Under the pieces are notes generated by a model. The model made no database searches and was not told the DNA's origin. It worked only from the letters and a program-made list of their open reading frames with translations. Shown here piece after piece: positions 2,231-62,953 of a stretch of 64,000 bases of DNA. Numbering within the stretch: position 1 is the stretch's first letter; each line of letters starts with the position of its first letter. The stretch is from Eledone cirrhosa (Eukaryota), in NCBI GenBank assembly GCA_964016885.1, contig OZ024744.1:83266001-83330000 (forward strand), written 5' to 3'. A program made the position numbers and the translations under genes.

Positions 2231-2411
2231 TAACGAAGGAGCTGTGGTAAGGAAGCAGATGGACTATAACGCTCCGGAGTACTCAATACTTAGGGTAGTA
2301 GACTGGTAATAAGAAAAAGTATGACCCCGACGGCAGAGCTCAAGCCGTTTCGTCAGCTATTTCTGGACTAAAAAAAATGGCTTGCGTTCTGGCGTTGGGG
2401 TCATATTTTTT

Positions 2412-2414
<3 letters not shown>
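2231..2414 (-). mobile_element. Family A Penelope-like mini-element, foldback, diverged
   Basis: Reverse complement of the family A tail and HHR 3' half, followed by a degenerate inverted arm ending in CCTAT(AT)n. Confidence 0.75.
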
Positions 2415-3027
<613 letters not shown>

Positions 3028-7796: not shown

Positions 7797-7916
7797 GTGT
7801 GTGTGTGTAGTGTAGTGTAGTGTATTGATGTGTAGCATTTAGTTACTGGGGGTTGAGAGATGTAAGTTTCTACGGGTATTTAGGGAGCAGACAGTTAATA
7901 ATAGTAATAGTAATAA

Positions 7917-8102
7917 TTGTTTCTTCTTTTGGCACAAGGCCAGCAATTTACCCCCACTGCATTACTGGTACTTTCTTTTATCGTCCCCGTAAGGAGAAAA
8001 GGCAAAGTTAACCTCGGCGGGATTTGAACTCAGATCGTAAAGGGCCGTAATTCTATACGGTAAATCATGGCGTCTGACGCTTTACGGGCATTGACATCCA
8101 CC
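7917..8102 (-). mobile_element. tRNA-derived Nin/Deu-domain SINE
   Basis: Reverse complement has B box GAGTTCAAATCCC, the Nin core and a GAAACAA(TTA)n tail. Confidence 0.85.
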
Positions 8103-8221
8103 ATAATAACAATATAAGGAGCAGGAACGATGTATCAATACAGCATCATTATGTTTATTCACGTGATGTGACGCACGTTGATGCTTAGTTCTTGTTCCCT
8201 AATTATATTATTATTATTATT

Positions 8222-8388
8222 AGAGGGTCTGCTGCCATGTTTTGCAGTATAGTGTTACGGCCCTTTATGATCTGAGTTCAAATTCCACCGAGGTTAACTT
8301 TGCCTTTCATCCTTACGGGTTCGATAAAATAAAGTACCAGTAATGCACTTGGGTATTTTGGTGGCTTTGTGCCGAAAAGTAGAAACAA
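8222..8388 (+). mobile_element. Nin/Deu SINE, 5'-truncated, in an (ATT)n tract
   Basis: B box GAGTTCAAATTCC, core and tail present. Confidence 0.85.
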
Positions 8389-8413
8389 TTATTATTATTA
8401 TTATTAGACACAA

Positions 8414-8600
8414 GGGCGGTGGATTGGCAGTATCTGTAGAGAGTCGGACGCCATGCTTTCCAGCATAGTTACGTCCCTTTACGATCTGAGTTCAAATCCC
8501 GCCGAGGTTAACTTTGCCCTTTTACCTTACGGGGACGATAAAATAAAGTACCAGTAATGCACTTGGGTAATTGCTGGCTTTGTGCCTCAAGTAGAAACAA
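8414..8600 (+). mobile_element. Nin/Deu SINE, full length
   Basis: A box TGGCAGTATCTG and B box GAGTTCAAATCCC; flanked on both sides by (ATT)nAGACACA (TSD-like); a third head fragment starts at about 8627. Confidence 0.9.
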
Positions 8601-8780
8601 TTATTATTATTATTAGACACACGTTATGGTGGTGGATTGGCAGTATCGGTAGAGGGTCGGATACCTTGTTTGGTGGTTTATCCTTGGGTAGAATTGGTCA
8701 TTCTGCAAAAATAATCATAATGTAGCAGTAACAAAATCACTCGACGTTACACAACTCATCCATCTTTCATGGTGAATCCT

Positions 8781-8925: not shown

Positions 8926-9202
8926 TTATATGTATATATTTATTGTTATGCTCTGAAGCTTTCTGAAATATTTCATCTTAGAAATACTGGTTAGAAAGTT
9001 TGTTATGGGGATAAATGAAAATAAGAGTGATTACGCTATATACAAAATAATATTGCAGTTTATTTATGAATTAAGATATATAAATATATATATATAGTAA
9101 TAATAATAAAATTGAAGACTAAAATCCAAAGAGGGCTCGATAAGGAAAATATATATCAGATATATAAGAACCGAAGAGCAAATATTTATTAAAATAACAG
9201 AT

Positions 9203-9271
<69 letters not shown>

Positions 9272-9527: not shown

Positions 9528-9531
<4 letters not shown>

Positions 9532-9720
9532 AACATGTATGACCCCGACGGCAGAATTCAAGCCGTTTCGAAGGGTATTTCTGGACTGAAATAGCCGTCG
9601 AAACGGCTTGAGCTCTGCCGTCGGGGTCATACTTGTTCCTATTTCCCCCTCTACTACCCTAAGTATTGAGTACTCTGGTGCGTTATGGTCCATCTGGTTC
9701 CTTACCACAATTGCTTTGTT
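9528..9720 (+). mobile_element. Family A foldback mini-element (HHR 3' half in both arms)
   Basis: TAGGAACATGTATGACCCCGACGGC...GCCGTCGGGGTCATACTTGTTCCTA plus an ~90-bp tail, in (TA)n. Confidence 0.85.
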
Positions 9721-9799
9721 ATATATATATATATATATTATCATTATTATTATTGTATATATTATATATATATATAAATATATATATATATTATTATTA

Positions 9800-9912
9800 C
9801 TGAGTTCAAATCCAGCCGAGGTTAACTTTGCCTTTCATCCTTACGGGTTCTATAAAATAAAGTACCAGTGATGTACTGAAATTGCTGGCCTTGTGCCAAA
9901 AACTAGAAACAA
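9800..9912 (+). mobile_element. Nin/Deu SINE 3' part
   Basis: B box, core and tail, within (ATT)n. Confidence 0.8.
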
Positions 9913-10084
9913 TTATTATTATTATTATATATATATATATAGTTGTAGTGCACCTGAGCACTGTACACAATAATTTCATTATTATTATCATTATTATATA
10001 TATATATATATATAGATAGATATGCATATATATATATGTATAGATACATATATATATAAGCATATACATATGCATATATATATA

Positions 10085-10280
10085 TAGGAAAAGCTTAACC
10101 CCGACGGCAGAGCTCAAGCCGTTTCGACGGCTATTTCTGGACACCAGTCCAGAAATAGCCGTCGTAACGGCTTGAGCCGTCGAGGTTAGACTTTTTCCCT
10201 ATTACCCAATTTACTATTCTAAGTATTGAGTACTCTCGTGCGTTATGGTCCATCTGGTTCCTTGCCACACCTCCTTCGTT
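10085..10280 (+). mobile_element. Family A foldback mini-element
   Basis: Same architecture as 9528; centre CTGGACACCAGTCCAG. Confidence 0.85.
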
Positions 10281-10323
10281 ATATATATATATATATATAT
10301 ATATTCAAGTAAGAATATTTTCG

Positions 10324-10803: not shown

Positions 10804-10836
<33 letters not shown>

Positions 10837-10843
10837 ATATATA

Positions 10844-11052
10844 TTAGAAAGTGAGGTTTTTTTACAAAATGAAAAATAACCGAAGTGTCCTACACGAGTG
10901 AAAGTATAAAGAAAAAAAAGATGGAATCAAAAATGCAAGTGGAGTCTCATTTAAAAACATATATATATTTATTTGGTTCCTTTATCGGTTTCGCAATTCT
11001 TCTGCTTTTCAAAAGTAGTGTTGAGATGGAGGGTCTGTGGTTTTTCTCACAT
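10844..11052 (-). mobile_element. Family F mini-element with UUGAAAA-core HHR (10979-11015)
   Basis: Homologous to 23567-23761, 25706-25843 and 30936-31300. Confidence 0.8.
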
Positions 11053-12026: not shown

Positions 12027-12041
12027 TACACATATAAATAA

Positions 12042-12231
12042 TTGTTTCTACTTTTTAGCACAAGGCTAGCAATTACACAGTGCATTACTGGTACTTTATT
12101 TTATCGACCCCCGTAAGGATGAAAGGCAAAGTTAACCTCGGCGGGATTTGAACTCAGCATGGCAAGGGCCGCAACTCTATGCGTCAAAGCATGGCGTCTG
12201 ACCCTCTACCGATACTGCCAATCCACCGCCC
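12042..12231 (-). mobile_element. Nin/Deu SINE, full length
   Basis: Reverse complement starts GGGCGGTGGATTGGCAGTATCGGTAGAG (A box), then B box, core and tail. Confidence 0.9.
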
Positions 12232-12403
12232 TACATATAAATAAGGTATATAAATTCGTGTACAACTCGAGATGAGACGAGTTGCAGACAAGTTTCAGTG
12301 AATGGATAAAATGCCAACTGTGAGCCAACAACTTCAAAACACGTTAATTTCCGCAATTTTTTTTAAAGTGACTCCCTTAAAAGACCTTGTTGAACTCATG
12401 TAT

Positions 12404-21836: not shown

Positions 21837-21993
21837 TAGGAACAAGTAAGACCCCGACGGCTGAGCTCAAGCCGTTTCGACGGCTAATTCTGCCGTCGGG
21901 GTCTTACTTGTTCCTATTACCCACTCTACTACCCTAAGTATTGAGTACTTTGGTGCGTTATGGTCCACCTGGTTCCTTACCACATTTCCTTCG

Positions 21994-21995
<2 letters not shown>
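21837..21995 (+). mobile_element. Family A foldback mini-element with a central deletion
   Basis: TAGGAACAAGTAAGACCCCGACGGC...GCCGTCGGGGTCTTACTTGTTCCTA plus tail. Confidence 0.85.
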
Positions 21996-22045
<50 letters not shown>

Positions 22046-23351: not shown

Positions 23352-23761
<410 letters not shown>

Positions 23762-24165: not shown

Positions 24166-24362
24166 TAGGAACAAGTATGACCCCGACGGTAGAACTCAAG
24201 CCGTTTAAACGGCTATTTCTGTCTGGACAGAAATAGCCGTCGAAACGGCTTGAGCTCTGTCATCGGGGTCATACTTGTTCCTATTACCCACTCTACTACA
24301 CTAAGTATTGAGTACTTTGGTGCGTTACGGTCCATCTGGTTCCTTACCACAATTCCTTCGTT
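24166..24362 (+). mobile_element. Family A foldback mini-element
   Basis: Same architecture; centre TTTCTGTCTGGACAGAAA. Confidence 0.85.
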
Positions 24363-25500: not shown

Positions 25501-26687
25501 TATTACAACTTATATAAACATGTATATATTCATATACACACATATATAAACATGTATATATGTATTTATATATACATATATATATATACACACATATATA
25601 TATATACACACATTTATATGCTAATGTATGTGACTACATCGTTACGTATATATAGTTCCATCTAGCTGTCGAAACGGCCGGAGCTCAGACTTCGGGTTCA
25701 TATATATAAGGAAAAAAGAAGAAATCGAAAATGCAACTGTAGACTTTTTTTTTTTAAATATATTTATTTGGTTCCTTTACCGGTTTCTCAGTTCTTGTGC
25801 TTTTCAAAAGTAGAATTGAGATGGAGGGTTTGTGGTTTTTCTCTGGTATCTTCTTCTGATAAATGAGTTTATATTTTGAATTTTATTATTTGATGTTCTA
25901 TAATGTTGCTTTACATTATCTTTTATGTACAAACTTTAACGTGTTATGATATGAACTTAATGCAACTTTTCAGGAATATTAAGTATAGTAACTTTAAATA
26001 CCAGAATACTTGAATATATTGCATTATTTTTTTTTTTACTACTTGAACTATTTCCTAGAACCGTTATATAAATTAGAATTTCAGTTGCGGATATTTTCTG
26101 CCAAGCACAACATTTTATATTACAGCATGATAATGTTTTACAATGGTTTACAAAACATGTGTTGATTTCTATTCATATACTCATTTTTACTTTTCAAATG
26201 CTGTTCACAATGTTTATGTCTATTCGTTTGTCTAATTGATTTAGTTCCTGGATGTATTGATTTAAGATTTTGGTTTTCGGCCGCGTTATCTGATTACTTA
26301 GATTCATTTTAATATCTTCCTTCTTGTTTATAATATTAACTATAAACTAATATATAAATCCAGTACACAGGTGTTTTTTCTTAGGGGGATGTGAATAATT
26401 GAAAGTGTATGTTAATCAGATTAATATAAAACTAAATATATACATAAATAAATACATACATACGTACATATGTTTATGTATATATATATAGTAACAGTAA
26501 AACTAAATAGACAAAGCACAAAAGCTGAAAGCTCGGAGATAGAAGAGCGCAAATATATATCTATATATCATGTGTGATATTTATTATAAGAATTTTTACC
26601 TAACTTTATTCGAATGAATGGATGTACAACTCTCCTGACAGGAATTAAAAATGATTTAAAAGTTAATTTTTCCAGCTACGTATTTGA

Positions 26688-27150: not shown

Positions 27151-27155
<5 letters not shown>

Positions 27156-27371
27156 TAAAATAACAGATTAAAGTTTAAGCAAAGAATCGCTCCTTGCACC
27201 CTTAACGGGATCTTCAGAAGATCCCGTTAAGGGTGAAAGCAGCGATTCTGTGCATAAACTTTAATCTGCTATTTTAATAAATATTTGCTCTACGGTTCTT
27301 ATATATTTGATATATATTTATCCTTATCGAACCCTCTTTGGATTTTAGTCTTCAAATTTATTATTATTACT
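27151..27371 (+). mobile_element. Family B foldback mini-element, centred on the HHR core
   Basis: Centre GGGATCTTCAGAAGATCCC; tail shared with 47454-47673, 48484-48580, 9095-9206 and 57925-57996. Confidence 0.85.
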
Positions 27372-27510: not shown

Positions 27511-27619
27511 TAGGAACAAGTATGACCCCGACGGCAGAGCTCAAGCCATTTAAACGGCTATTTCTTGACTCAGAAATAGCCGTCGAAACGGCCTGTGCTC
27601 TGCCGTCGGGGTCATACTT

Positions 27620-27624
<5 letters not shown>
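27511..27624. mobile_element. Family A foldback, both arms short
   Basis: Centre TTTCTTGACTCAGAAA; both ends in (TA)n. Confidence 0.85.
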
Positions 27625-27664
<40 letters not shown>

Positions 27665-27702: not shown

Positions 27703-28701
27703 TGCTTATACATTTCCCTTTTAATTTGTAACCTAATTTACATTACACGAGTGCAATTTTTTTAATTAATCTTACTTATATGAATAATCTCTAAGCCGTA
27801 ATATACATTGGTAAAATATTGTCGGCATCTATGGGGGAAATGCTTAAGGGAGAAAATGTGGTTGCATATTTTGTCCCTTTACTGTTCTAGAATTACAAAA
27901 CACAAATTTTAAAATTCTTCTTCATATTAGCCTATGTAATAACCCCCAAATATCAAATGAGAGTGCAGGTCTACCCGTATAGTTCCGAAATCTGATTTGC
28001 AATCACGGCGTTCGGTGTTCGATCTCATTATACGTCAACATGAGACAGTCTTATATTTCCATACCCTCAACGCGACTCAATGTTTGTTACAGATATAAGT
28101 AAAACGGTGGGATGTTCCTAAGGCCATCTTGTGACCTGAATCTGCTCATGGGTTTTAGATTTAATTTGACTCACTATAACCTGAATGATACTTGTATAAC
28201 TTTTCCAGAGTTTACCGTGATGCAAACGTTCGAACCAAGGACTCGGCCTAAAAATATAACTTGATATGTTGTTTCGGCATCAACCCATTACACACACGTG
28301 ATTGCACGCACGCATATATATATATATATATACATATTGAAGGTATGGAAATATAAGACTTCTCATGTTGACGTATAATGAGATCGAACACCGAAAGCCG
28401 TGATTGCAAATCAGATTTCGGAACTATACGGGTAGACCTGCACTCTCATTTGATATTTGGGGGTTATTACATAGGCTAATATGAAGAAGAATTTTAAAAT
28501 TTGAGTTTTGCAATTCTAGAACAGTAAAGGGACAAAATATGCAACCACATTTTCTCCCTTAAGCATTTCCCCCATAGATGCCGACAATATTTTACCAATG
28601 TATATTACGGCTTAGAGATTATTCATATAAGGAAGACTAATAAAAAAAATTACGCTCGTAATGAAAATTAGGTTACAAATTAAGAGGGAAATGTATAAGC
28701 A
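27703..28701. repeat. Long inverted repeat, ~366-bp arms with ~266-bp spacer
   Basis: 27703-28070 is a close reverse complement of 28337-28701; the right arm is bounded by (TA)n on both sides. Confidence 0.9.
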
Positions 28702-30935: not shown

Positions 30936-30942
<7 letters not shown>

Positions 30943-31292
30943 AAAAAGAGATGAAATCGAAAATGCAACTGAAGTCTTATTTTTTTTTTAAATATATATA
31001 TTTTTATTTGGTTCCTTTACCGGTTTCGCAGTTCTTCTGCTTTTCAAAAGGTGAGTTGAGATGGAGGGTCTGTGGTTTTTCTCAGATGTGAGAAAAACTA
31101 CAGACCCTCCACCTCAACTCACCTTTTGAAAAGCAGAAGAACTGCGAAACCGGTAAAGGAACCAAATAAAAATATATATATTTAAAAAAAAAATAAGACT
31201 TCAGTTGCATTTTCGATTTCATCTCTTTTTCTTTATACTTTCACTCGTGTAGGACACCTCGGTTATTTTTCATTTTGTAAAAAAAACCTCAC

Positions 31293-31823: not shown

Positions 31824-31986
31824 TATATATATATATATATGATCTTTCTCATAACGCGTGTGAGTATATAGAAATATATATCAACATACGAATATGAACA
31901 TACACTTGCAGATGCACACATACGCACACAGTAAACACATCGTTATATTTCTTTGTCTATCTTCAACTTATTATTTAACTGTCAAA

Positions 31987-32192
31987 GAGCGGTAGATTGG
32001 CAGTATCGGTAGAGAATCGGACACCATGCTTTGAAGGATAGAGTTACGGTCCTTTACTGTCTGAGTTCAAATCCGGCCGAGATTTTTTTCGTCTTTCATC
32101 CCTACGGGGTCGATAAAATAAAGCACCAGTCTCGATTTAATCGACTTTTCCCTTCCCCCAAAATTTCTGGCCTTGTGCCTATATAAGAAACC
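31987..32192 (+). mobile_element. Nin/Deu SINE, long-tail subfamily
   Basis: A box, B box, core, and an extra TCGATTTAATCGACTTTTCCCTTCCCCC segment. Confidence 0.85.
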
Positions 32193-34075
32193 ATTATTTA
32201 ACTGTCATTTCATTGTGTTCGGGTGTAATATTCTTGTACTTAATGACCAACTGCTCACATTATTTTGCCACGCATTTTTTTTGTTTCTTGCTGGACTAGA
32301 TGAGTGCAGTAACATTTAGGATATAGAAATGGTAGTTGGATTTAAAATACACATGGACAACTAATATCTTAAACATCACTCGCTCTTCTTGCGAACAGAA
32401 TTCCTTTAGTTTTCCTTAAAGGAAAACATTTAAAACTTTCGTGAACGCGTGGTTCTGTTTTCCACTGTTGTATAGTTTGCAACATGCATAAGTCTTTAAT
32501 TCAGCTTGCAGCCACCATAACGAGTGGTTTTTATTTTTCGTCAGTGTTTCAATGCCTTAAGACAAGATAATGTATTGTTGAAAATTGTATGGAAGCAAAA
32601 GTAAATTATAACACTTTATATGTAGGACTGTACTATTGACAGTTCTTTTGCCTCAAACGTCTCTCAGTGCCTTAGTCTTGCCATAGATTTCTCAATCAAT
32701 GTAACTTTAAATAACAACAAAATAAACATACTTAGTATAACCTCACAAGTAAACATCAGTAGGAAAAACATTGTAGAGGAATCAGCGTAAACATATTGGA
32801 AAAGCAGTGGATTTTCCCCTAGAGAGAACGTTCGAAATCTTTACTTAAAACTGTCGTAGCTGTATATCTTTCCCGAAAGACATGGTTTTAAGTTTGTACT
32901 TTTGTATGAAATCATGGATTTGGGTTTGACTTTTATTTTTAATTTTATTTTAGTCTGTTACTTTGGGTACTTGAATACTAAAATATACTTCATTATTTCA
33001 TACTTCCCATCATACCTTTCATTGTCTCAGAAACGAATATTTTAATGCCTCATTTCATTTGGTTCTGACAATGATTACCTACAATGGAATTATTTCCCAG
33101 ACAACACTAGTTTCATCTCTCATATGATTAATGCTAAAGAAGCTATAGCTAAACCCCGAATAATGGATGTGCGAAGAAATTGTTATTGATTCTGTGTTTT
33201 TTTTTTTTCATTTTATCTGTGCATAATTCAACAGTATAATGGGATATTGGAATAAGCCATTGGTATTTGGTACCCCAAATGACTTATTAGATAGAAAGTG
33301 TAGTGCCAATTCAAAACACTGCATATCTCATAATTTATATATCTCACCATTTTAAATAATGTTCTAGAACATTTTATGCTTGACGAGATGTGCAGTGTTG
33401 CGAATCATATTATAACACCAAATATAGTACATTATTTTTAAGTAATGCATTCTATGTAATATTGATGTTTTTCTTCAGAATTTCTCATATTTGTTAGGGA
33501 TGAGGACGGCTAATTGGGCCGACTTCAGTACATAGTTGGTATGTATTATATAGAAACGTGAGAGAGGAAAACGCTAAATGTGACACCCTGTCGGATTTAA
33601 TCTCAGAATTTAAAGGGAGATAAATGGTTATTGAAAGCAACCTAGATCAGTGCTAACTGTTTTTGTAATCCACCGCCATTTTATATTACAATTAAAATCA
33701 TTGGTGATTTTGTTAGAATTGCTAAAGGCCAACACAATAAATACTTTTAAACATTGGTAAAAGAGAAGTCTTATATTTAGCACTCGCCATACCCGTTGGT
33801 TGAAATTAAGAAGAACACGTACAGTTTACTTTTATATCCAAATGAAACTGTGATTAAATAGGTGCCAAGAAAAATACAATGTACTTAGTTAAACACTGAA
33901 TAATTTCTTAACATGTGGAGCTGTGCTCGAAGACTTACAAACTTAACATACTAAGTCTTCTGTGTGTGTGTATACTTAGTATGTTAGTGTGTGTATATAC
34001 ACACACACACACACATATATATTAATATATATGTGTGTGAGTGTATTTGTGTGTGTGTGTGCGTGTGTGTGCGTG

Positions 34076-35726: not shown

Positions 35727-36348
35727 TTGTGTTGTTGTTGTTGCTGACCACCTTTCATAGGGAAGAACAAGATTGATCATGAAAGTCAGACACATTCCTT
35801 TCGGTCAAGGTTACCGACTTTTTCAAGTTTCATTAAGAAAGGTAGATAAAAGCGAATGAGCTTATTCTCAGCATGTGCCTGTTGATCGGACAATGATTAT
35901 TAGGGGAAGGAACTCAAGCTTGAAAGTAAGGTTGATTGTGGATCTATATTGCGGATTGTTCCTCAATAAGCCTTAGGTATCCAGCACTCTGTACCAGGAG
36001 GATTTACTTCCATATTTAATAGTATATTATATATACCTAATTTGTATACTATGTATACTTGTTGCCCATATTTTTCTCATTTCTATGTAAAACTCAACTT
36101 CATGGTGGTACTTGTATTTGTAATGTCTCATTCGTTTGATGCCCTTGTGGCAAATAAATGAAATTATTATATGGAGTCTAATTCATAATATACTTCCATC
36201 GTTTCACAATATGTGTCAGCAGAGAGACTAGATATCTCGGGAGATGGTTGCAGCAAGGAAGCGATCACATCTGTAAGGTTTTCAGCCATTGCAATATCCA
36301 GGTGTGTGTCAACACCATGATTGTACATCTAATATATGTTTCCTTCAT

Positions 36349-36445
36349 CCGAGGTTAACTTTGCCTTTCATCCTTACGGGGTCGATAAAATAAAGTACCA
36401 GTAATGTACTGGGTAATTGCTGGCCTTGTGCCAAATGTAGAAACA
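36349..36445 (+). mobile_element. Nin/Deu SINE 3' half
   Basis: Core and tail present; ATATGTTTCCTTCAT repeated on both sides (TSD-like). Confidence 0.85.
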
Positions 36446-36649
36446 GTTATATGTTTCCTTCATATTGCCATGTACCGTAATGTTAGTTTTGGAGAATAAT
36501 GAAAATAAGCATACACGTCCATATATTAATATTGCTTTCTATATACACGTGCAAATGTTACTTCTAATTATTAAATCTGGACTTGATAAGTTTGGAATCC
36601 AGTAAAAATAAGGACGCTGGAAGGTTCGGCTTTCATTTTATGTCTTACT

Positions 36650-45163: not shown

Positions 45164-45231
45164 TAAAATAACAGATTAGAATTTAAGCAAAGAATCGCTG
45201 CTTTCACCCTTAACGGGATCTTCTGATCTCA

Positions 45232-45265: not shown

Positions 45266-45693
45266 ACATAGCGAGAGACTTAAGTCTTAGTAACCAGATT
45301 TTGCTTATATTTTTTTCTCTCTCAGTACCTTTTACAGTTTTACCTTTCATTGTTCTACTTACCGTTTCGACCTCCTCCCCCTCCCCCTCCCCAGTATCCT
45401 CTTTGACCTCACACCCAGCTGTAGCTGGCACTACCAACGCATGAATGGGTCTACTCCACCCTCTCTCCCCTTTTCTCCTACTGGCAGGTTTAGCTACCCC
45501 TTCCCCCACCAACTTGCCATCACAGATTTACTACTAACTTGTGATGTGACCAATCCTGGTGATTATCTCTTTGACCATATATGGAATTACCCCTTGATAA
45601 GTTCGGCTATTTAAATACCAGAATTAATTTTTCATTCAGTACAGAATTAGCCGTCGAAACGGCTTGAGCTCAGCCGTCGGGGTCTTACTTGTT

Positions 45694-45697
<4 letters not shown>
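45266..45697 (+). mobile_element. Longest family A copy (non-foldback) with a complete HHR
   Basis: About 320 bp of pyrimidine-rich leader, then the HHR, ending CTTGTTCCTAT(AT)n. Confidence 0.75.
45589..45683 (+). ncRNA. Hammerhead variant with U3-A8 core and large stem II loop (family A)
   Basis: ACCCC-TTGATAA-G.CGGCTA...TAGCCG.C-GAAA-CGGCT..AGCCG-TC-GGGGT; GUC triplet 45676-45678. Confidence 0.8.
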
Positions 45698-45740
<43 letters not shown>

Positions 45741-47453: not shown

Positions 47454-47673
47454 ATTAAAATAACAGATTAAAGTTTAAGCAAAGAATCGCAGCTTTCACC
47501 CTTAACGGGATCTTCTGAAACTTTTAGTTTCAGAAGATCCCGTTAAGGGTGAAAGCAGCGATTCTTTGCTTAAACTTTAATCTGTTATTTTAATAAATAT
47601 TTGCACTAGGGTTCTTATATATCCTTATCGAGCCCTCTTTGGATTTTAGACTTCACATTTATTATTATTACTA
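47454..47673 (+). mobile_element. Family B foldback mini-element
   Basis: Centre TTCTGAAACTTTTAGTTTCAGAA; HHR-like motif in both arms. Confidence 0.85.
47526..47576 (+). ncRNA. Hammerhead-like motif with CAGAAGA core (family B)
   Basis: AGTTT-CAGAAGA-TCCC.GTTAA.GGGT-GAAA-GCAG..TTGC-TT-AAACT; identical at 48598-48648. Confidence 0.65.
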
Positions 47674-48446: not shown

Positions 48447-48488
<42 letters not shown>

Positions 48489-48597
48489 ATAATAATAAAA
48501 TTGAAGACTAAAATCCAAAGAGGGCTCGATAAGGAAAATATATATCAAATATATAAGAACCGTAGAGCAAATATTTATTAATATTTATTAATAGGTT

Positions 48598-48648
48598 AGT
48601 TTCAGAAGATCCCGTTAAGGGTGAAAGCAGCGATTCTTTGCTTAAACT
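48598..48648 (+). ncRNA. Hammerhead-like motif with CAGAAGA core (family B)
   Basis: As 47526, with stem I extended past a bulge (AATAGGTTA pairing with TAATCTGTT). Confidence 0.65.
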
Positions 48649-48673
48649 TTAATCTGTTATTTTAATAAATATA

Positions 48674-48857
<184 letters not shown>

Positions 48858-49246: not shown

Positions 49247-49430
49247 GGCGGTAGATTGGCAGTATCTGTAGAGAGTCGGACGCCATGCTTTCCAGCATAG
49301 TTACGTCCCTTTGCGGTCTGAGTTCAAATCCCGCCGAGGTTGACTTTGCCTTTCATCCTTACGGGGTTGATAAAATAAAGTACCAGTAATGTACTGGTTA
49401 ATTGATGGCCTTGTGCCTAAAGTAGAAACA
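49247..49430 (+). mobile_element. Nin/Deu SINE, full length, with an 18-bp TSD
   Basis: TSD ATTATTAAGAATAACAAG at 49229-49246 and 49431-49448; A and B boxes present. Confidence 0.92.
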
Positions 49431-49551
49431 ATTATTAAGAATAACAAGTGTATCACTATACACACTTAAATATATATATTCTTTTATACTCTTTTACCCT
49501 TTTACTTGTTCCATCCATCCGGCTGAGGTCATGCCGGGGCACCGCCCTTGG

Positions 49552-59903: not shown

Positions 59904-59907
<4 letters not shown>

Positions 59908-60096
59908 AACGAGTGGGACCCCGTCGGCTGAGCTCAAGCCGTTTCGACAGCTAATTCTGGACTCAGAATTAGCCGTCGAAACGGCTTGAGCTCAACCTTC
60001 GGGGTCCCACTCGTTCCTATTACCCACTCTACTACCCTAAGTATTGAGTACTTTGGTGCGTTATGGTCCACCTGGTTCCTTACCACATATCTTCCG

Positions 60097-60098
<2 letters not shown>
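59904..60098 (+). mobile_element. Family A foldback mini-element
   Basis: Both arms share the private variant ACGAGTGGGACCCC / GGGGTCCCACTCGT. Confidence 0.85.
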
Positions 60099-60134
<36 letters not shown>

Positions 60135-61921: not shown

Positions 61922-62112
61922 GGGCGATGGATTGGCAGTGTCGGTAGAGTGTCTGACGCCATGCTTTGCAGCAAAGAGTTAAGGCCCTTTATGGTTTTAA
62001 GTTCAAATCCTGCCGAGGTTAACTTTGCTTTTTTTCATCGTTACGGGGTCAATAAAATAAGTACCAGTAATACACTGAGATAATGGCTGGCCTAGTGCCA
62101 AACGTAGAAACA
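61922..62112 (+). mobile_element. Nin/Deu SINE, full length
   Basis: A box, B box, core; ATTATTAGTCCACAGT repeated on both sides (TSD). Confidence 0.9.
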
Positions 62113-62556
62113 ATTATTAGTCCACAGTTTTCAGACCCCCACCTAATAATATAAATAGGTGAATAAATCTACCGAAACTCTTACAGGTCTGAGTGTTCCC
62201 CATGGCACTACTGCACTTCTGTGACGAACTTTTAGTAGTAAATGTTCACAAAGTGTAAACTCTAATGAATGCATTGTTTTATATTTCTTTCAGAAATACG
62301 GGCCTGAAAATCAACACTGATTCTCCCGTTCACATTCACGTGTTTTTTACCAGCTCCTGGAGCTGGAAATTCTACTATTTTGCTGTTAATTAAATATATT
62401 TCCGTCTAAGCGTAAATGTATCCACCCAGGTTATATTTACCATTCTCACCAACCTTTCAGAAAGTCTTTTTGTAAAGCACATACCTAGAACCCTCACCTT
62501 GCCCCTAAACGATACTTAAAAATAATGACAACAACAACAACAACAACATTGATAAT

Positions 62557-62953
62557 GGTTTCTTATATAGGCACAAGGCCACAATTACCCAGTGCATTAC
62601 TGGTACTTTATTTTATCGACCCCGTAAGGATGAAAGGCAAAGTTAACCTAGGCGGGATTTGAACTCAGAATGGCAAGGGCCGTAACTCTATGCGTCAAAG
62701 CATGGCGTCTGACCCTCTACCGATACTGCCAATCCACCACCTTAATAATGGTTTCTTATATAGGCACAAGGCCAGTAATTTGGGGAGAGGAGAATGTTTA
62801 TTAAATCGATCCCGGTTTGTTACTGGTACTTTACTTTATCGACACCGTTAGGATGAAAGGCAAAATTAACCTGGGAAGGATTTGAACTCAGAACGTAAAG
62901 GACTGTAACTCTATGCTGTGGAGCATGGTAACCGACGCTCTATCGATACTGCC
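62557..62953 (-). mobile_element. Two tandem Nin/Deu SINEs (62557-62741 short-tail, 62750-62953 long-tail)
   Basis: Each has tail, core, B box and A box in antisense; ATAATGGTTTCTTATATAGGCACAAGGCCA is repeated. Confidence 0.9.

Follow-up and report, generated by a model that had tools for sequence, protein, structure and literature searches.

Background

Penelope-like elements (PLEs) of the Hydra clade, among them Hydra-1_Obim of Octopus bimaculoides, are marked by RWK, by DKT rather than DKG, by a CxCX5C linker, and by CxxC and CxH motifs around the E and N of the endonuclease (Craig et al. 2021, PMC8557442). An inverted 5' copy and a one-sided tail are given there as standard PLE features, and the origin of the head-to-head inverted structures is stated as unresolved (PMC8557442). 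Elsewhere, head-to-head junctions have been ascribed to self-priming on antisense RNA (PMC3846280). Internal promoters within the pseudo-LTR (pLTR) have been described for Penelope of D. virilis (PMC2377424) and proposed for Adineta elements (PMC3846280).

The enzyme of PAc, a Poseidon element of Anolis, cuts and extends both target strands, two internal sites of reverse transcriptase (RT) initiation bracket its tail, and insertion does not need hammerhead cleavage; the parts of that study consulted do not address cDNA ends or the sealing of the inverted structure (Frangieh et al. 2024, PMC11167929). In Cercyon elements of Schistosoma, hammerhead pairs on opposite strands 100–700 bp apart have been noted, and a circular RNA form has been proposed in the same work (Cervera and de la Pena 2014, PMC4209133). 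An extra G at the retrotransposed 5' end has been attributed to the mRNA cap in L1 (PMC9341517, PMC11702581). Finally, retrozymes, defined by head-to-tail tandem units that each contain a whole type I hammerhead, have been linked to PLEs (bioRxiv 10.64898/2026.07.22.740005).

Here, we analysed a window of 64,000 nucleotides of the Eledone cirrhosa genome (contig OZ024744.1). A preliminary description, made from its letters alone, had proposed that one complete U3-A8 hammerhead explains seven palindromes, all broken inside the loop of its stem II. The repeats concerned are called family A below, and two further families of the window B and C.

Results

A hammerhead-bearing element fragment in the window

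The complete copy comprises the following features:

45268..45698, forward strand: family A copy, the 5'-truncated 3' end (3' UTR and pLTR) of a PLE assigned to the Hydra clade, lying in (TA)n and ending at the short 3' end
45589..45683, forward strand: predicted type I U3-A8 hammerhead fold, from sequence, pair probabilities and pair counts on 18 copies
45589-45593 with 45679-45683, forward strand: hammerhead stem I
45594-45600, forward strand: hammerhead core, U3-A8 (UUGAUAA)
45604-45609 with 45648-45653, forward strand: hammerhead stem II
45656-45659, forward strand: hammerhead GAAA
C45678, forward strand: predicted cut after this base (GUC), next to stem III with its palindromic loop GAGCUC

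The upstream 375 bp of this copy produced 2077 candidates in the genome (3.0 Gb searched), the best 40 of which were 97–100% identical, and many of the 2077 were arranged as inverted pairs. In locus L037 and others, the equivalent of the copy sits 3' of an ORF with RT and GIY-YIG.

Within 45589-45683 the parts follow in the order ACCCC / UUGAUAA / G..CGGCUA / loop / UAGCCGUC / GAAA / CGGC..GCCG / UC / GGGGU, and the type I core (C/U)UGAN(G/A)A...GAAA...NUH with three stems is present in family A. Pair probabilities of the three stems were 0.75–0.99, with only 0.10 for G10.1-C11.1, and the region was not unusually stable (fold z-score of only -1.25). An Rfam scan of the whole window and of 45400-45700 reported no hammerhead family. 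In 18 copies, hand-picked to span the family A subfamilies, 90% of cells were paired and three stem II pairs had double changes; the covariation was matched by one of 500 shuffles, and slid controls dropped to 29–51%. All four bases occur at core position 7. The predicted fold is therefore likely to be real, with cleavage standing as a prediction. Genomic 3' ends lie about 20 nt beyond the predicted cut site, so that cleaved RNA is not their template.

With the Cercyon hammerheads (PMC4209133) the family A fold shares the U3-A8 core, a short stem I, the location in the pLTR, a long stem II whose 5' end includes unpaired bases and a palindromic loop III. It differs from them in a stem III of 5 bp, in a long loop II containing the putative start site discussed below, and in that most copies hold the 3' half only. 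As the preliminary description had noted, the 5' half is confined in the window to the copy at 45589-45683, one of 14 family A arms found there; the core pattern of the family gave no matches in five base-shuffled windows. Another 3'-half arm stands alone at about 25652-25700; it belongs to a more distantly related subfamily of family A and is directly followed by a family C fragment.

A family A subfamily with a C3-A8 core mismatch was also observed (L074, L256, L257; contig C1). Judged by eye, this variant made up 30 of 100 complete 5' halves among the matches listed, and its 3'-end type is among the commonest in foldbacks. This would fit a hammerhead activity that is dispensable for miniature insertions.

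Parent element and classification

The whole anatomy of the element was read from L037, in which an inverted pLTR with tail is followed by pLTR, tail, ORF, 3' UTR and pLTR, ending in (TA)n. The PLE arrangement of pLTR-ORF-pLTR with an inverted 5' copy and a one-sided tail is thus present in L037; one tail was also carried by 18 of 23 long inverted pairs, and the three with two tails resemble tandems entering the ORF. Translations of L037, L032 and L035 contain a single ORF with a PLE-type RT followed by a C-terminal GIY-YIG, and the motifs GATDSAEV / YRDD and VIY..AYIG were read by eye in all three. A Pfam scan of three natural ORF pieces returned no families, and an ORF homologue search gave 791 matches without informative names (best 53%). 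L035 and L037 carry LRWRTFF, DKTG, CNCPDRSSC, CNLC and CKH, with RWR replacing RWK, and on these motifs, compared with the published description, family A can be assigned to the Hydra clade. The Naiad clade, our first guess, was dropped because the endonuclease is C-terminal.

The second of two 3' ends is defined by the tail:

60022..60100, forward strand: tail of about 80–90 nt, leading from the pLTR toward the ORF in full elements; where it ends is the second of the fixed 3' ends

The tail continues into the ORF in L037, and tail ends cluster at a single position. Both the short and the tail end enter TA repeats in nearly all sampled copies, as expected of a (TA)n target.

Family A shares with the Hydra-clade PLEs the C-terminal GIY-YIG and motifs, (TA)n targets, a hammerhead in the pLTR, an inverted 5'-truncated copy and a one-sided tail (PMC8557442). 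It differs in its hammerhead core (U3-A8 with a loop II of about 40 nt, against C3-G8 and short loops among the Hydra hammerheads listed), in its tail (80–90 nt against 30–40) and in its commonest insertion, a foldback of 110–200 bp with a fixed centre. The preliminary description had overlooked that the repeat is the pLTR of a PLE, a group in which a tail and an inverted 5' copy are on record. The element itself is of a known kind, and so are its pair of 3' ends, its inverted copy and tail, and its U3-A8 ribozyme variant.

Foldbacks in the window

Seven family A foldbacks were located, listed here with arms ending at the short 3' end (short arm) or at the end of the tail (tail arm), and with positions counted from +1, the A at 45638 where arms stop (see below):

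2231..2416: foldback, tail arm on the reverse strand and short arm on the forward strand (starting at GAAA); T/A run at the centre
9528..9722: foldback, short arm and tail arm; 30-nt spacer, the commonest register
10085..10282: foldback, short arm and tail arm; both reach +1/+2, with a few inserted bases
21837..21997: foldback of a young subfamily; tail arm joined further in via microhomology
24166..24362: foldback, short arm and tail arm; 34-nt spacer
27511..27626: foldback with two short arms and no tail, an exception to the rule
59904..60100: foldback, short arm and tail arm; 32-nt spacer, one arm reaching +1

The palindromes of the preliminary description were all recovered as 3'-half foldbacks, each with a different loop II junction, and one arm of 2231 and one of 21837 were indeed cut further in. 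Its combination of a short with a longer arm held for six of the seven but failed for 27511. The variant shared by both arms of 59904, which had been taken as private, proved to be an allele of 2.6% among 350 sampled arms, marking a minor subfamily; nor is such sharing the rule, as in 102 foldbacks 157 rare variants occurred on a single arm against 7 on both. The complete copy of the window was rejected as a parent of the seven foldbacks, which span several subfamilies.

Two other kinds of repeat were also seen in the window. One, SINE-like and dispersed, is about 170 bp long with (ATT)n at its end and has many copies, some of them tandem; the other is an inverted repeat with arms of about 300 bp, 97% identical and about 380 nt apart, which is unrelated to families A–C.

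7915-8614, 9808-9923, 12037-12244, 31971-32198, 36346-36455, 49278-49437, 61922-62901: (ATT)n repeat copies
27713-28691: inverted repeat

Genome-wide numbers and arm structure

An exact 19-mer of the 3' half had 59,785 genomic matches. About 38% of arms match this 19-mer exactly (15 of 39, three samples), which corresponds to roughly 150,000–210,000 arms, and about 70% of arms were in foldbacks (104/151); we estimate the genome-wide number of family A foldbacks at about 50,000–70,000. The 151 sampled arms came from three sources: the window itself, 20 stretches of 10 kb taken at random, and the first matches on contig C1, the samples being mostly from the start of that contig.

Among 56 foldbacks not chosen by junction (a set excluding the loci of the G/A and G/G junction listings described below), 54 combined a short arm with a tail arm, none had two tails, and 53 junctions were distinct. 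Across all foldback loci, one tail was found in 96 of 102 and a distinct junction in 91 of 102. Independent insertions and two AT-primed 3' ends, as proposed beforehand, are supported. The flanks of foldbacks are (TA)n, where any target-site duplication would be hidden.

Miniature inverted-repeat transposable elements (MITEs) are class II non-autonomous elements that, like the foldbacks, are short, palindromic, very numerous and found at TA-rich sites. The foldbacks differ from them in their unequal ends, variable centre and retroelement parent, and no master copy was found; instead of a fixed master-copy centre and symmetrical terminal inverted repeats, there were 53 distinct junctions and 54 unequal pairs of ends in 56 foldbacks, in agreement with the earlier view that the palindromes only mimic a MITE. 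Spread from one or a few master palindromes, as a MITE or a non-autonomous retro-element whose centres diverged later, would suit the very high copy number and the many recurrences of some junctions. It is nevertheless scarcely credible, since nearly all junctions differ, those that recur do so across subfamilies and at registers of microhomology, long copies corresponding to the main foldback subfamilies exist, the unequal termini are unlike terminal inverted repeats, and three PLE families behave alike. The foldbacks also do not correspond to non-LTR retrozymes, their units being head-to-head and lacking the 5' half of the ribozyme.

The two arms of a foldback were concordant at +16 in 100 of 102 cases, although the alleles there run 58:41, and at +29 in 97 of 102. 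One foldback (L269) joins two subfamilies, its arms differing at seven diagnostic sites. The further-reaching arm was the short one in 22 of the 56 unselected foldbacks and the tail arm in 21, with 13 equal. The commonest spacer, in 10 of 56, was 30 nt, which by sequence is the register in which the terminal hexamers of two cDNA 3' ends at +1 would anneal. Several junctions hold short copies of nearby arm sequence, as in polymerase-theta joining.

These data bear on snap-back, in which the 3' end of a cDNA folds and primes its own copying into the second arm, in line with the self-priming idea of PMC3846280. The subfamily markers that are nearly always common to both arms, the perfect palindromes at some centres and the seven rare variants on both arms are what snap-back would give; we nevertheless consider it quite unlikely, since no systematic difference in length exists between the arms, two arms that both reach +1 are often separated by non-palindromic inserts, the arms of L269 differ at seven diagnostic sites, and the one-tail rule holds in long inverted insertions too. 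Of the two routes named in the preliminary description, twin priming or snap-back, something like the former stands, and simple snap-back is disfavoured by the arm lengths (22:21:13) and by L269.

A minority class was also recorded, in which a tail-primed arm that stopped early (in the tail or at the pLTR end) is joined to a short arm reaching +1 (L066, L067, L068, L114, L115, L117, L128; 48458-48690 in the window). This class fits two separately primed cDNAs. In addition, L082, L088 and the 2231 copy carry runs of 7–18 A where the cDNA ends 3', seen as T runs ahead of +1, which points to untemplated addition, or to slippage, once run-off had occurred.

Contigs of two public sequencing runs displayed a depth step near 45631-45652 and foldback loose ends; the runs may be the source of the assembly. 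The contigs with foldback ends argue against an assembly artefact, though they are possibly not independent of it.

Arms stop at an initiator-like A in loop II

Two features of the complete copy are relevant to the position of the break:

45636..45643, forward strand: initiator-like YY-A(+1)-GT in loop II, from the arm-end histogram, genome counts and untemplated G
45608..45615, forward strand: TATA-like TATTTAAA, starting 30 nt before the putative start and overlapping the 5' strand of stem II

Foldback arms stop at a wall, A45638, which lies 18 nt ahead of GAAA. In the sample of 151 arms, 129 ended within 31 nt of GAAA and two at 52–56 nt, and 20 were complete; the mode was 17–18 nt before GAAA, at the A of YYAGT, a motif that is conserved while the rest of loop II is variable. 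The histogram and the genome counts agree with the clustering of breakpoints that had been described, and the suggested stereotyped RNA 5' end is supported. Genome-wide, at least 23,540 arms reached +1 (a filtered lower bound), 7,875 reached 9 nt beyond it and 5,511 another 45 nt upstream, thereby holding the 5' half; the patterns differ in length and degeneracy, so that ratios between these counts are approximate. An earlier value of 1.4% complete copies (819 matches) was discarded because its pattern was too narrow, and was replaced by the 5,511 matches and the 20 of 151 sampled arms. The wall is not absolute: about 9 of the 56 foldbacks seem to pass +1 by 1–17 nt, mostly via T runs. The TATA-like box is absent in some subfamilies, and it weighs little as evidence because the pairing of stem II also constrains its bases.

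G was found at -1 in none of 56 complete templates. Foldbacks with G at -1 on both arms numbered 392, and those with A on both arms 10. By eye, a templated CAG insertion could account for the G at 41 of 50 G/G junctions listed and not at the other 9, and the clean excess of G scales to about 70 versus 10. T was the commonest base before +1 at both-arm junctions, as counted by eye (22 T, 9 G, 4 C, 3 A). A G/A listing restricted to S (91 G, 9 A by eye) was rejected as evidence for a cap, since the opposite arm accounts for the G at about 60 of its junctions. From the sequences we infer that the wall at A45638 is a transcription start, and the untemplated G would then be a copied cap. The conserved YYAGT could instead be a tertiary contact of the ribozyme. 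A splice acceptor at the wall was considered and rejected, since arms keep AG and have no common upstream exon.

Families B and C as controls

Two other PLE families form short-arm/tail-arm foldbacks as well, each represented in the window:

47458..47665: foldback of family B, a second PLE placed in the Hydra clade; short arm and tail arm, both reaching the A of TT-AGTTTC
30940..31260: foldback of family C, centred on CC-AGATG, with a complete U3-A8 hammerhead fold in each arm

The family B ORF is about 52% identical to that of family A, and a full unit is present in L251. The initiator-like A of this family, reached by at least 17,614 arms, forms the wall just upstream of the hammerhead core. 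This hammerhead looks decayed in all copies seen (core CAGAAGA, stem III broken), and the family is widespread. Window copies of family B lie at 27151-27369, 47458-47665, 48458-48690, 45168-45228 and 9102-9205.

Family C (L249, L250) is likewise a PLE; by its motifs, DKG and a CX4CxxC linker, it is Neptune-type, and its compact hammerhead fold is U3-A8 with a GUA site. Its window copies lie at 30940-31260, 10830-11050, 23568-23760 and 25700-25850. The family has at least 7,724 arms. Of 60 arms sampled, 20 ran far upstream, two (of one foldback) ended at -20/-24, and 38 ended at -3 or downstream. The peak of arm ends is the +1 A; in full copies, the first T of TATAAAA precedes this A by exactly 30 nt and the complete hammerhead core follows it at 44 nt. 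Of 10 untemplated arm ends, 7 were G. Rfam reported sub-threshold miRNA matches on family B and C foldbacks.

The walls of families B and C are upstream of their ribozyme cores, which argues that the break follows the promoter and not the ribozyme. The title claim of the preliminary description, that the hammerhead explains the break, is not supported: family C breaks 44 nt upstream of an intact core, and family B just upstream of a decayed one. Nor is an RT stop at stem II supported, as both families stop at an initiator-like A upstream of their cores. Stalling of RT at hammerhead stem II or at a loop structure would suit the location of every family A break in or beside loop II, and some subfamilies have an inner hairpin ending near the wall. 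It is nonetheless highly improbable: the wall is at least 8 nt past the 3' strand of stem II, where the helix has already been copied, subfamilies that lack the inner hairpin have the wall at the same place, the ribozyme cores of families B and C lie downstream of their breaks, and stalling does not predict an untemplated G.

A physical RNA 5' end at the wall A could also be made by processing (a nuclease, small-RNA slicing or another cut), with the remaining steps unchanged. The sharp wall and the run-off features require merely a 5' end, and reverse transcriptases can add C without a cap. Processing is very unlikely all the same, considering that the family C wall is exactly 30 nt after TATAAAA, that all three families stop at a pyrimidine-pyrimidine-A step, and that the hammerhead cut site is 40 nt from the wall.

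Discussion

For family A, the sequences show a parent element with its ORF, two fixed 3' ends, a short arm combined with a tail arm in each insertion, a wall at one A, heterogeneous junctions, arms of the same subfamily and an excess of untemplated G before the wall. The foldbacks are probably miniature PLE insertions that result from two primings, run-off at a capped start and head-to-head joining through microhomology. Both-strand cutting and extension, together with internal initiation, are carried over by analogy from another PLE, PAc (PMC11167929).

According to this proposal, the enzyme of the element would cut both strands of a (TA)n target, RT then being primed by one strand at the pLTR end and by the other where the tail ends. 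Each of the two cDNAs would extend to a likely capped start in hammerhead loop II and run off there. One RNA would usually serve as template for both, with the cDNA primed at the pLTR being displaced by the enzyme primed at the tail, or else the template RNAs would stem from a single locus; L269 and L123 suggest two template RNAs in at least some cases. Host end-joining would seal the centre head to head via microhomology. As the priming sites would be only about 60 and 150 nt from the 5' end of the primary transcript, the miniature would be the default product. Starting in loop II, a primary transcript of family A would begin without the 5' half of the ribozyme; RNA arising by read-through, or tandem or circular RNA, would be required for long copies that hold the hammerhead whole, such as that at 45268. 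The wall and the G before it, the rule of one tail, the matching subfamily and symmetric truncation of the arms, and the registers of microhomology would all be explained by such a mechanism.

PAc and family A have in common the cutting and extension of both strands at AT-rich sites, proposed for family A, and two initiation sites (PMC11167929). In family A, both ends match the AT of the target at the junction, whereas initiation in PAc was reported as non-homologous to the cut DNA (PMC11167929). In its use of both target strands, foldback formation appears to resemble twin priming. With that of L1 it would share a primer on the other strand, end-joining by microhomology and an extra G at full-length 5' ends (PMC11702581, PMC9341517). 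The cDNAs of L1 copy adjacent, nearly non-overlapping parts of the RNA, whereas the arms of family A copy the same 60 nt; unlike in L1, both cDNAs would reach the 5' end, and both priming sites are fixed (PMC11702581, PMC9341517). The non-overlapping upstream segment typical of L1 twin priming was not found in the foldbacks, the arms of which overlap fully.

Miniature PLE foldbacks centred on a start site were not found in the literature searched, which was mostly from outside subscription journals. The miniature foldback product and the marking of the start site by its centre are thus apparently new. The sequence data favour a sense, capped RNA over the antisense self-priming of PMC3846280. 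With natural products numbering in the tens of thousands and drawn from three families, probably of two clades, the argument is for two primings on a sense capped RNA, and the exact wall positions make the question of the PLE mechanism directly testable. In practical terms, the foldbacks are easily mis-annotated as MITEs or microRNA hairpins.

Whether two-ended target-primed reverse transcription is the normal integration of endonuclease-bearing PLEs across clades, with foldback centres mapping transcription starts and the family A promoter nested in its hammerhead, is in our judgement evenly balanced. If true, one sense capped RNA copied twice would explain both the head-to-head repeats and the one-sided tail, and neither antisense templates nor self-priming would be needed for the inverted repeats of PLEs. 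Self-cleavage at the 5' end would then be impossible for primary transcripts of family A, and long, ribozyme-complete copies would arise solely from circular RNA or from read-through. Miniature foldbacks would represent a fossil map of the transcription start of each family, and their centres would predict promoter positions without RNA data.
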